A DNA stretch of 64,000 nucleotides from Escherichia phage vB_Eco_OMNI12 (OL362041.1); one strand, 5' to 3'; positions 44,775-55,019 are shown, counted from the stretch's first letter. The notes: a model not told the origin generated them from the sequence alone. Numbers and translations are program-made.

Positions 44775-44782
44775 TATAAATA
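44775..44782 (+). promoter_or_regulatory. Late promoter (TATAAATA) for the tail fibre operon
   Basis: TATAAATA about 35 nt upstream of gene 34. Confidence 0.6.
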
Positions 44783-49841: not shown

Positions 49842-49849
49842 TATAAATA
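49842..49849 (+). promoter_or_regulatory. Late promoter (TATAAATA) for genes 36-37-38
   Basis: TATAAATA about 24 nt upstream of gene 36. Confidence 0.6.
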
Positions 49850-49872: not shown

Positions 49873-50523
49873 ATGGCTGATTTAAAAGTAGGTTCAACTG
49901 TAGGTGGATCTGTCATTTGGCATCAAGGAAATTTTCCATTGAATTCAGCCGGTGACGATGTACTCTACAAATCATTTAAAATATATTCAGAATATAATAA
50001 ACCGCAGGCAGCTGATAACGATTTCGTTTCTAAAGCTAATGGTGGTACTTACGCCGGTCCAATTACTATTAATTACGGGGTAAATAGTTATCTTCAATTA
50101 AGTAATAATGAAACCCCTATCCGAATTCGTTCTGGTGGCGGCACTGGTAATACTCTTGTAGTTGGCGGCTCTTCCGGTGGTATTAGTTTTAGACCTGCAG
50201 GTAGTGAAATCACTACTGGACAAATTACTATTACGCCAGAAGGTTTGACAACATTTACCAGGGCTGTAACGGCTCCATCGGTAACTGTTACATCTACTCC
50301 TTCCGCAGCATCTGATGTTACTCGCAAAGATTATGTTGATGGAGCAATAAATACTGTTACAGCAAATGCAAACTCTAGGGTATTACGCTCTGGAGACACT
50401 ATGACAGGAAATTTAACTGCGCCAAACCTTTTTTCACAGAATCCTGCATCTCAACCTTCACACGTTCCACGATTTGACCAAATCGTAATTAAGGATTCTG
50501 TTCAAGATTTCGGCTATTATTAA
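49873..50523 (+). CDS. gp36: Long tail fibre distal connector gp36
   Basis: 216 aa. Confidence 0.8.
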
Positions 50524-50531
50524 GAGGACTT

Positions 50532-53498
50532 ATGGCTACTTTAAAACAAATACAATTTAAAAGAAGCAAAACTGCAGGAGCACGTCCTGCCGCTTCAGTA
50601 TTAGCCGAAGGTGAATTGGCTATAAACTTAAAAGATAAAACAATTTTCACAAAAGATGACTCAGGTAGTGTTATAGAATTAGGTTTAAAATATGGAGGAA
50701 CTATAAATGGGTCTTTAGAGGTTACAGAAAATATAACTGGAACTTTAATTGGAAATTCTAGCACAGCTACTAAATTGCAAACACCTAGGAAAATTAATGG
50801 TATATCTTTTGATGGGTCAAAGGACATTACCTTAACTCCATCTGACATAAATGTCAATAGCACAACATTTATAAAAAATAATGGCGAATTACCTACTGAT
50901 GCTAATTTAGATACGTATGGGCCCATTGAAGAATATCTTGGTGTTTGGTCGAAATCTACTTCAACAAATGCGCAACCAGCAAATAAATTCCCAGAAGAAA
51001 ATGCCGTAGGTGTACTAGAAGTGTTTGTGGCCGGCCAATTTGCTGGCACTCAGCGTTATACTGTAAGATCTGGTAACGTCTATATTCGTTCCTTATCTGC
51101 TAAATGGAATGGCGTCGATGGTCCATGGGGTGTGTGGCGTAATGTTCAAGCGTCAACTCGTCCACTTTCACAAACGATTGACCTTGATAGCTTGGGAGAA
51201 TTAGAACATTGCGGCTTATGGCGAAACAGTTCAAGCGCAATCGCATCATTTGATCGCCATTATCCAGAAGAAGGATCAGCCGCACAAGGATTTTTAGAAA
51301 TATTTGAAGGTGGTTTATACACGAGAACTCAGCGTTATACTACCCGAATGGGTGTTGTATATGTTCGTTGTCTTGCTGGTGCATGGGATCCAGAAGCTCC
51401 GAATTGGGGACCGTGGCAACAAGTAGGTATGGTTACTCCCAACACATTCTATGACGGGGATCTTAATAATTTTCGTTCTCCTGGCTTATATAATATTTTA
51501 GGCACTGATGCCGTTATTAACCGTCCAGTTGCAGAAGGTGTTCCGGTTGAGATGACCGGATTGCTTGAGGTTAAACAGCGTGCTTCCGGTGCCGCTATTT
51601 TCCAACGTTTCACTACCGCAGGAACGGGTGCAACTACGCGATCTCGCGTGTTTGAACGTGCGATGACAAATAACATCTGGGGAAATTGGTACGAAGTATA
51701 TACGTCCTATTCTATGCCGATCACTCTGGGTATGGGTGGTGTTAAATCTCAATTAGCGGAGCTAGACTGGCAAACCTTTGATTTTGTCCCTGGTAGTATG
51801 TTTAGTGTTCCTTTGAACAAAATAAAGAATATGCCAGCAAATATGGATTGGGGGACGATTGACGGAAACTTGGTTATGTTTTCTGTCGGTCCTAGCGAAC
51901 ATACCGGAACGGGTCGAACTGTTCAAGTGTGGCGCGGTACTGTATCTCAGGCGAACTATCGTTATTTCGTTGTTCGTATCGCTGGTAATCCAGGAAGTAG
52001 GACTAATACTTGTCGTCGTGTTGTTGTGGAAGATGGTCGCCACACATGGACAGCACAGCAAGATTTTAATGGTGCTGTCAACTTTGGTGGTTCGACAACT
52101 TTTAAGTCCACTACAACTTTTAACACAGAAGTTAAATTCCGTTCATCCAATGCATTTAAAATGTATGGCGGTAATTTTGGCACAATTTTCCGTAATGATG
52201 GTGAAAGTCTTTATATTCTTTCCACCGACGAAGATGATCAAGATGGAAACTTTAATACAAATAGACCTTTCCGTTATGAATTAAGAACTGGTGATGTTAC
52301 TTTAGGTGGTACTAGTGGTGCTAACGTTTTAAAATTAAAACGTGATTCTCTCACCGCATTTTTTGGTGGTGATATTAACATGAAAGGCTTGATGACTTTT
52401 GACGCCGGACGTTTAGGATCACGAGATTATTTTAAATTTAACCATTGGGGTGATAGTAATAATGCGCGCGATAACATTATTCAGTTAGAAGACAGCAAAG
52501 GCGTTCATTTTTCCACTGAACGTACTTTAGCGACAGGTGCAATTAAGACTAAATTTTTTGGTGAAATTGAATCCGATGGTAAATTGATTATTAAACGTCC
52601 GGGCGATTCTATTGTATTATCAACAACTGCTAGTAATTCTTTGCATATTCGCGGTGATATAGACGGGACTGGTAACTGGTATATTGGTAAAGGTGGTGCT
52701 GATAATGGATTAGCGTTCTATAGTTATGCTACTAATGCTGGTGTATACATTACAAACGCAGGAGATATCTCGCTAAGTCCAAAGGGTGCCGAAATGGCTC
52801 AGGTCAATAACGTTCGATTATATGTTCATGGTGAACGTTGGACCGCTAGTCAACCAGGTGATTGGGGCAGTCAGTGGCAAGTGGAAGCGCCAATATTCGT
52901 CGATCATGGTTATGTTGGACCAGATAGCTATTATCCAATTATTAAAGGAAGAAGTGTAGTCACCAATCAAGGGTTTGTAACTGCCGTCGATCTTGGTATT
53001 CGTCGTGTCCCTAACAATTGGGGGCAAGCAATTATTCGTGTTGGATCTGCAGAGGCATCGCCAGCGGCTGGACACCCTAACGCGGTATTTGAATTTCATT
53101 ACGACGGTACTTTCTATTCTCCTGGTAATGGTAACTTTAACGATGTGTATATTCGTTCCGATGGTCGTCTTAAGATTAATAAAAAAGAGCTAGAAAACGG
53201 AGCACTTGAAAAAGTATGTCGACTGAAAGTTTATACATACGATAAGGTTAAGTCTATTAAAGATCGTAGTGTTATTAAACGTGAAGTTGGTATTATTGCT
53301 CAGGATCTTGAAAAAGAATTATCAGAAGCTGTATCTAAAGTTGAAGTTGATGGATCTGATGTTCTGACAATTTCTAACTCCGCTGTAAATGCTCTTTTAA
53401 TTAAGGCTATCCAAGAAATGAGCGAAGAAATTAAAGAATTGAAAACGCCTTTCTTCACTAAAATTGCTCGCAAAATTGGTAAATACTTTAAATTCTAA
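50532..53498 (+). CDS. gp37: Long tail fibre distal subunit gp37 with C-terminal intramolecular chaperone domain
   Basis: 988 aa; C-terminal ~113 aa matches the S74-type autoproteolytic chaperone domain (SDGRLK ... [11 protein letters not shown]). Confidence 0.9.
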
Positions 53499-53531
53499 TA
53501 ACAAGGGGCATTGCCCCTTTGGAGATAAATT

Positions 53532-54332
53532 ATGGCAGTAGTTGGTGTTCCTGGTTGGATTGGAAGTTCATCCGTAAATGAAACAGGGCAACGATGGATG
53601 AGTCAAGCGGCTGGTCAATTAAGATTGGGTGTTCCTTGCTGGATGAGTCAATTTGCAGGTCGCTCGCGAGAAATTATTCACACGCTTGGAGCAGACCATA
53701 ACTTCAATGGTCAATGGTTCCGAGATAGATGTTTTGAGGCAGGTAGTGCACCTATAGTGTTTAATATTACAGGTGATTTAGTATCATATTCTAAAGATGT
53801 TCCTTTATTCTTCATGTACGGGGATACGCCTAATGAATATGTTGTTCTTAATATTCATGGCGGTGTTCATATGTGGGGTCGTGGTGGTAATGGTGGATAC
53901 ACTCACTCAGGAGGCGACGGTAACGGTACACAAGGCGGTCATGTTATTCAAAATGATATCGGTGGACGGCTTCGTATTTGGAACTACGGTGTTATAGCTG
54001 CTGGCGGTGGCGGCGGTGGTGGTATTGCATATCGTCCACACTCAGGGGCAAACTGGCAAGATATCGGTGGCGGTGGTGGTCGACCTTTCGGTGCCGCGGG
54101 CGGTGGCGGTTATTCCGGTGGTGCTGCTTCGTATGAAGGTCCGGGTGGTGGTTATGACTATGGTAACGCACACTCCGGCGCAGGTGGTAATGCTGGTGCT
54201 GCTGGTCAGAATGCATGGTCTGACGGCGGTAAAGTTCTTAAAGTTGGTGTTGGTGGTGCGTCTGGTCATGCAGTGTTTGGGTCTTCTCCAACTTGGGGTG
54301 CTGTTGGAACAATTTACGGACCAAGAGTATAA
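53532..54332 (+). CDS. gp38: Tail fibre adhesin gp38, T2-type with glycine-rich motifs
   Basis: 266 aa; poly-Gly blocks separated by short variable segments; conserved N-terminus [13 protein letters not shown]. Confidence 0.8.
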
Positions 54333-54362
54333 TGTGAATAAATACCCTTAAAAGGAGGGTCT

Positions 54363-55019
54363 ATGGCAGCACCTAGAATATCATTTTCGCCCTCTGATAT
54401 TCTGTTTGGTGTTCTAGATCGCTTGTTCAAAGATAACGCTACCGGGAAGGTTCTTGCTTCCCGAGTAGCTGTCGTAATTCTTTTATTTATGATGGCGATT
54501 GTTTGGTATAGGGGAGATAGTTTCTTTGAGTACTATAAGCAATCAAAGTATGAAACATACAGTGAAATTATTGAAAAGGAAAGAAATGCACGCTTTGAAT
54601 CTGTCGCCCTGGAACAACTCCAGATAGTTCATATATCATCTGAGGCAGACTTTAGTGCGGTGTATTCTTTCCGCCCTAAAAACTTAAACTATTTTGTTGA
54701 TATTATAGCATATGAAGGAAAATTACCTTCAACAATAAGTGAAAAATCACTTGGAGGATATCCTGTTGATAAAACTATGGATGAATATACAGTTCATTTA
54801 AATGGACGTCATTATTATTCCGACTCAAAATTTGCTTTTTTACCAACTAAAAAGCCTACTCCCGAAATAAACTACATGTACAGTTGTCCATATTTTAATT
54901 TGGATAATATCTATGCTGGAACAATAACCATGTACTGGTATAGAAATGATCATATAAGTAATGACCGCCTTGAATCAATATGTGCTCAGGCGGCCAGAAT
55001 ATTAGGAAGGGCTAAATAA
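54363..55019 (+). CDS. t: Holin T
   Basis: 218 aa; single N-terminal TM (VAVVILLFMMAIVWY) and large periplasmic domain. Confidence 0.85.
   Translation: MAAPRISFSPSDILFGVLDRLFKDNATGKVLASRVAVVILLFMMAIVWYRGDSFFEYYKQSKYETYSEIIEKERNARFESVALEQLQIVHISSEADFSAVYSFRPKNLNYFVDIIAYEGKLPSTISEKSLGGYPVDKTMDEYTVHLNGRHYYSDSKFAFLPTKKPTPEINYMYSCPYFNLDNIYAGTITMYWYRNDHISNDRLESICAQAARILGRAK

Follow-up and report, generated by a model that had tools for sequence, protein, structure and literature searches.

Among T-even phages the name gp38 is given to proteins of two kinds: the gp38 of T4 is annotated as an assembly chaperone of 183 amino acids and is not an adhesin, and the gp38 of phages of the T2/T6/S16 type is a receptor-binding adhesin found on the long tail fibre's tip. 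Which of the two is encoded by gene 38 of Escherichia phage vB_Eco_OMNI12 (OL362041.1), and, if it is the adhesin, which component of the host surface does it recognize? The gene lies on the + strand, at positions 53532..54332 of the stretch of 64,000 nucleotides that was analysed as a whole (the window). A reading made from the sequence alone had proposed that its product is an adhesin of the T2/S16 type. The explanation that we regard as very probable, taken in its entirety, is that the protein is an Ox2-type adhesin, in which a polyglycine-II (PGII) core displays a set of loops whose most likely binding partner is OmpA.

The open reading frame runs from ATG to stop (53532..54332, +) and encodes a protein of 266 amino acids. 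It stands in the g37-g38-t order, directly after gene 37 (50532..53498, +), which encodes the 988-aa distal subunit of the long tail fibre that forms the gp38-capped trimer (assigned by its ORF and Pfam matches) and contains a chaperone domain, and before the holin gene t (54363..55019, +), the neighbour that fixes the locus and that matches Pfam Phage_holin_T with an E-value of 1.9e-117. Searches of Pfam with the gp38 sequence gave two matches, both above the curated cut-off, which is 25 bits for either profile: Gp38_N (PF21721) at aa 1-42 (3.2e-19, 69.1 bits), and GP38 (PF05268) at aa 47-266, covering the profile from position 1 to 218 of 218 (2.1e-68, 230.9 bits). PHROG 2056, "tail fiber protein; host specificity", is matched at 1.4e-110. 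Two proteins of solved structure are also found, namely the receptor-binding domain of PP01 gp38, solved as an sfGFP fusion (1.5e-65; PDB structure 9V85, PMC12892980), and S16 gp38, chain D of the gp37-gp38 tip complex, with which the alignment is nearly end-to-end (1.3e-43; PDB structure 6F45, PMC6851490). Family membership and locus are established: this is an adhesin-type gp38 of the T2/T6/S16-type T-even phages, and all of these matches support the earlier proposal.

The gene name and the place downstream of gene 37 are the only features common to the window protein and T4 gp38, and they are the only points that favour reading the former as a T4-type factor, that is, as a non-structural chaperone of gp37 assembly with no adhesive role in the virion. 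The comparison with T4 gp38, which the sequence-only reading had suggested as a check, detected no similarity by BLASTP, where the best alignment (E = 3.6, over 7 residues) is noise. The family matches are all to adhesin models and structures, and gp37 has an intramolecular chaperone domain of its own. The chaperone identity is refuted at the sequence level, and we give it essentially no credence.

The adhesin has a clear modular organization. We aligned it with the gp38 proteins of Ox2, eight other members of the same clade, fFiEco06, AV119, T6, T2, AR1 and S16, and transferred the positions of five predicted distal loops, A to E, from the loop definitions of PP01 (PMC12892980). The N-terminal attachment domain (aa 1-42; 53532..53657, +), delineated by the Gp38_N match and by the alignment, is of the T6-like subtype, and its three tryptophans, W9, W22 and W37, are the same in all six aligned proteins, those of the window, Ox2, T6, T2, AR1 and S16. 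It is followed by the first part of the central β-helix domain (aa 47-114; 53670..53873, +), assigned by homology from the Pfam GP38 match and the alignment with PP01 and S16. In the remainder of the chain five glycine-rich motifs (GRM) follow one another in fixed order, with four hypervariable segments (HVS) between them. This architecture is established by the alignments and corresponds to the five-motif, four-segment definition of gp38 given by Trojet et al. (PMC3157838).

GRM1 (aa 115-122, WGRGGNGG; 53874..53897, +) has G116, R117, G118, G119 and G121 invariant in T2, T6, AR1, S16 and Ox2. HVS1 (aa 123-134; 53898..53933, +), placed by alignment and PP01 numbering, includes aa 125-130 (HSGGDG), which correspond to loop A of PP01; the segment varies among the five reference adhesins and is identical inside the Ox2-type clade. 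A conserved return segment of the β-helix (aa 135-157; 53934..54002, +) is recognized by its invariant columns G135, G136, I139, N141, G144, L147, R148, I149, N151, G153 and I155. Then comes GRM2 (aa 158-164; 54003..54023, +), defined by run count and alignment as an uninterrupted row of seven glycines, the S16 counterpart of which is the long PGII helix 3, 151-GGGGGGGG-158 (PMC6851490). GRM2 of Yersinia phage PYps5T consists of eight glycines, as does that of S16, and the window protein and all other aligned clade members have seven; the difference in PYps5T is a one-codon length polymorphism within the poly-Gly run.

HVS2 (aa 165-178; 54024..54065, +), with the equivalent of loop B at aa 167-176 by alignment, contains the R-x-HSGA motif, which spans R165 to A170 in the type 1 adhesins and contacts OmpA according to in silico analysis (PMC12032242). 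GRM3 (aa 179-193; 54066..54110, +), with invariant columns G179-183, R184, P185, G187, G190 and G191, runs at its end into the equivalent of loop C (aa 191-194, GGGY). HVS3 (aa 194-215; 54111..54176, +) includes the equivalent of loop D (aa 209-213, DYGNA), again by alignment, and is separated by GRM4 (aa 216-225, GAGGNAGAAG; 54177..54206, +), where G216, G218, G219, G222 and G225 are invariant, from HVS4 (aa 226-240; 54207..54251, +), which the alignment shows to hold the equivalent of loop E (aa 229-235, WSDGGKV). The chain is completed by GRM5 (aa 241-250) and a conserved C-terminal strand (aa 251-266), together at 54252..54329 (+), with invariant columns at G245, A247, V248, G250, P253, W255, V258, G259, I261 and G263. 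Almost the full length of the protein can be aligned with the S16 and PP01 structures, and all glycine-rich motifs and the three tryptophans are conserved in them; the loop sequences, however, differ from those of S16 and PP01, both of which bind OmpC, and over the whole protein S16 is 44% identical and AR1, which is closely related to PP01, 61%.

The Peptidase_S74 domain of gp37, an intramolecular chaperone such as the S16 and T2 types also have, was located by Pfam at aa 876-934 (53157-53333, +) and begins with the SDGRLK motif, of which S876 is the first residue. The C-terminus of gp37 aligns with the S16 gp37 construct in 6F45, and its last 251 amino acids are 96% identical to Ox2 gp37. 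Because the domain starts at S876, about 113 C-terminal residues of gp37 would be removed before capping by gp38. Such a cut fits the processing of T2 gp37 (Drexler 1986, as cited by Trojet et al., PMC3157838). In the middle of the same protein, aa 525-581 (52104-52274) match Pfam Gp34_trimer (4.3e-13), described in Pfam as the trimerisation domain of the proximal subunit of the long tail fibre, and this match suggests a fibre module shared by gp34 and gp37.

Prediction of the gp38 structure by AlphaFold2 from the single sequence gave an unusable model (mean pLDDT 32.7, pTM 0.21), and the fold and mode of docking proposed here are taken from the homologous proteins of S16 and PP01, whose structures have been solved. 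The likely course of events is that a chaperone domain at its own C-terminus assists gp37 in forming the trimer and is then cut off near S876, exposing the end of the trimer. One gp38 monomer would cap this new tip through its N-terminal three-helix bundle, with W9, W22 and W37 seated in pockets of the mature trimer's end, in the same way as the three tryptophans of S16 gp38 plug that protein into the gp37 trimer (PMC6851490). The middle part of gp38 is expected to fold as a β-helix, and the glycine-rich motifs to form polyglycine-II helices that pack into a rigid "PGII sandwich", as in the S16 model (PMC6851490). This glycine core would display the five distal loops (aa 125-130, 167-176, 191-194, 209-213 and 229-235), and these would most probably make reversible contact with OmpA of E. 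coli at its extracellular loops, initiating adsorption; binding of the short tail fibres to LPS and contraction of the tail would come after the OmpA step.

The glycine content of the protein is high. Glycine makes up 25.6% of the whole protein and 35.3% of residues 111-266, and among the window's 42 ORFs that reach 150 aa gp38 is the richest in glycine (the next one has 11.1%, and the median is 5.9%). The runs of seven, five, four and three glycines noticed in the sequence-only reading are all present in the 266-aa frame, at G158-164 (GGGGGGG, nt 54003-54023), G179-183 (nt 54066-54080), G190-193 (nt 54099-54110) and G205-207 (nt 54144-54152), in addition to ten GG pairs, and the alignments agree with that reading in that short variable segments separate them. 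Shuffling the residues with the composition of gp38 held fixed reproduced the 7/5/4/3 pattern in 0.66% of 20,000 trials, and the runs G158-163 and G179-183 are unchanged in T2, T6, AR1, S16 and Ox2. The same reading went too far in speaking of GGT/GGC repeat DNA. Codon use is indeed biased, with GGT (46) and GGC (11) accounting for 57 of the 68 glycine codons, and the last 471 nt of the gene have a GC content of 54%, compared with 36% for the window; Tandem Repeats Finder, however, reports no tandem array in this region, which is codon-biased glycine coding and not repeat DNA in the strict sense.

Four off-frame ORFs lie in the glycine-rich region (span 53978..54351, both strands): two on the + strand, of 52 aa (53978-54136) and 114 aa (54007-54351), and two on the - strand, of 74 aa (53992-54216) and 75 aa (54042-54269). 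Could any of them be a real overlapping gene? A length of up to 114 aa is unusual for a genome of 36% GC, and the frames remain open in the closest relatives. Their openness has an explanation, because GGT and GGC give no stops in the other five frames, and GGN codons in general cannot contribute to stops there; the six frames contain 28 stops in the 3' 471 nt of the gene, compared with a mean of 61, the lowest count of any 471-nt tile of the window. None of the four translations has a Pfam match at E<=1. The third codon position of the gp38 frame takes 30 of the 34 differences from ACG-C40 and 38 of the 43 differences from Sf21, a pattern which indicates that selection acts on the gp38 frame. 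Relative to fFiEco06 the off-frame translations are 36-47% identical, and the value for gp38 across that span is 85%; in that phage three of the four ORFs have gained stops and three of the four have no start codon, and in ECML-134 a stop falls inside the 114-aa ORF. The substitutions at position 3, and the stops and lost starts in relatives, mark these frames as by-products of the glycine codons, as the sequence-only reading had it when it called them spurious; fast divergence and the lack of Pfam matches likewise led us to reject them as genes, and the chance that even one of them is genuine appears negligible.

The closest relative of the gene is found in phage vB_EcoM_ESCO58 (OM386666, UPW39839), where the nucleotide identity is 100% over 801 nt, the gene order around it is the same, and the product is annotated as "tail fiber/host adhesion protein". 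In the ESCO58 record the CDS for "long tail fiber, distal subunit" (275-2212) is a 645-aa fragment, compared with the intact 988 aa in the window; the annotation is truncated because the sequence was linearised within gene 37 in GenBank. Gene 38 of Ox2 (X05675), which is placed in the same g37-g38-t locus, is 98.1% identical at the DNA level, and its 266-aa product (CAA29158) is identical to the window protein at 262 of 266 positions (98.5%), with no gaps. The four substitutions, read from the window to Ox2, are N174K in loop B, A188G in GRM3, G193R in loop C and A257V. At two of these sites Ox2 is the exception, since N174 and G193 are the clade consensus and occur also in AV119, and at position 257 alanine is the commonest residue in the clade, with V in Sf21, as in Ox2, and N in ECML-134. 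Position 188 is different: of the 16 aligned sequences the window's alone has alanine, the other clade members having G and fFiEco06 and AV119 having P. ESCO58 must also have A188, because its gene is 100% identical.

On a larger scale, the 20 kb around g38 are 96-97% identical to many Tequatrovirus genomes, with the best contiguous match in DalCa. Identity is unevenly distributed along the gene itself. Over residues 111-266 the protein shows 97.4% identity with Ox2, 95.5-99.4% with the other eight members of the clade and 82-85% with AV119 and fFiEco06, and the values for T6, T2, AR1 and S16 are only 42-53%. In the comparison with T6 the first 110 residues are 94.5% identical, whereas residues 111-266 are only 53% identical and have different hypervariable segments and indels. 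The DNA comparison with T6 gives 97-98% identity over the 5' end of g38, 72-83% at 53652-53831 and 40-67% across 53892-54296, and again about 95-100% across gene t. The gene is thus a mosaic, consisting of a T6-like attachment module and an Ox2-type specificity cassette. The 453-nt cassette is found at an identity of at least about 93% in about 41 of 50,697 deposited phage records.

Modular exchange of gp38 specificity cassettes has been described before (Trojet et al., PMC3157838). Judging from the alignment, another clear case of module exchange, this time across genera, is apparent in Mosigvirus vB_EcoM_WFL6982, in which an Ox2-type cassette (95.5% identical in amino acids) is joined to an N-terminal module like those of PP01 and AR1 (80%). 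A further record, "Pseudomonas phage PsgM02F" (OR584013), has a gp38 that is 98.1% identical in DNA; its recorded host, Pseudomonas coronafaciens, is a surprising label for a Tequatrovirus with an enterobacterial adhesin.

The probable receptor can be predicted from these relationships. Ox2 is a classic OmpA phage, as cited in PMC12032242, and the same study (npj Viruses 2025, PMC12032242) describes a group of "type 1" OmpA-binding gp38 adhesins, including those of AV119 and FL08. AV119 is classed as having a broad adhesin of this type and is reported to depend on OmpA, from plating on deletion mutants (PMC12032242). In the alignment the window protein has the Ox2/type 1 set of hypervariable segments, and in the five predicted distal loops 30 of 32 residues are identical to AV119, the exceptions being P169, where AV119 has V166, and D209, where AV119 has Q. 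Loop identity is in this way established, even as the N-terminal module of AV119 is PP01-like and 75.5% identical to that of the window, compared with 82% for residues 111-266. OmpA is predicted because the protein is 98.5% identical to Ox2 gp38 and because its loops are common with those of the OmpA-dependent AV119; near-identity to phages with an experimentally determined receptor makes OmpA the most likely receptor of the window gp38. OmpA is a class missing from the list of candidates offered in the sequence-only reading (OmpC, OmpF, FadL and Tsx).

Might the same adhesin fold serve a different receptor, such as LPS, OmpC or Tsx (the last being the receptor of T6; Trojet et al., PMC3157838), or a wider set of receptors that goes beyond OmpA? 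The residues that could be responsible are A188, N174, G193, P169 and N220. Near-identity is not proof of a common receptor, because single substitutions in gp38 loops can switch it: Q206L in gp38 of RB51/RB68 switches between OmpF and OmpW (bioRxiv 10.64898/2026.04.02.716166), and Ox2 host-range mutants have changes in gp38, as cited in PMC12892980. A literature search gave nothing relevant on the substitutions in three such mutants, Ox2h5, h10 and h12. The window protein differs from Ox2 in two predicted loops (by N174K and G193R), no compared sequence other than those of the window and ESCO58 has A188, and P169 and N220 stand where AV119 has V166 and D217, two residues that are highlighted in the in silico contact analysis of type 1 adhesins (PMC12032242); at the second of these sites Ox2 has N, as the window does. 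It is also relevant that Ox2 itself needs more than one host component for full infectivity (Trojet et al., PMC3157838), so that OmpA may not be the sole requirement.

Several observations weigh against such a change of receptor. Throughout the clade N174 and G193 are the consensus residues, and the OmpA-dependent AV119 has both; A188 belongs to GRM3, shortly ahead of aa 191-194 (the equivalent of loop C), and is outside the hypervariable segments; and closely related gp38 sequences have been reported to recognize the same receptor (PMC12032242). We consider a receptor other or wider than OmpA unlikely, and think it less likely still that A188 together with P169 and N220 might shift or widen the specificity relative to Ox2 and AV119. 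If they did, the outcome could be, for example, recognition of other variants of the OmpA loops, as found in avian-pathogenic E. coli (APEC), or of a second receptor, and the adhesin would be an example of natural fine-tuning within an otherwise invariant glycine motif. OmpA stays the preferred assignment.

The protein is already known and well described as an adhesin, and the window copy teaches nothing new about how gp38 adhesins work; its value is mainly in annotation. Database records give identical or nearly identical genes various labels ("distal long tail fiber assembly catalyst", "tail protein and peptidase", "hypothetical protein"), and the name of the T4 chaperone is being propagated onto adhesin-type gp38 genes. 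The label of g38 should be receptor-binding adhesin, in place of the "tail fiber assembly" and the "tail protein and peptidase" that some records use. The OmpA prediction is useful for choosing cocktail phages with non-overlapping receptors. ESCO58 has been used in an anti-APEC cocktail, and its papers report host range only and no receptor.

The short gap between the stop codon of g37 and the start of g38 contains, just upstream of the GGAG ribosome-binding site of g38, a GC-rich hairpin with a 7-bp stem, AAGGGGC-ATT-GCCCCTT (53503-53519). A hairpin is found at the same position in Ox2, T6, T2, AR1, AV119, S16 and T4, where the stems differ and the loop is often TTCG. The annotation of one relative calls it a putative terminator. 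The window hairpin lacks a T-run, and in folding energy it does not differ significantly from shuffled sequences (z = -0.9); it resembles hairpins known from T4, which are intercistronic, stable and of the UUCG type. A scan of 53300-54500 gave no promoters or terminators beyond the number expected from shuffles. The T4-type late-promoter consensus TATAAATA is not found directly upstream of g38; a second copy on the + strand is at 44775-44782, and the nearest one is at 49842-49849 (+), 24 nt upstream of the start of gene 36 at 49873. Because there is no late promoter directly upstream of it, g38 is probably co-transcribed with g36 and g37, as part of a single transcription unit.
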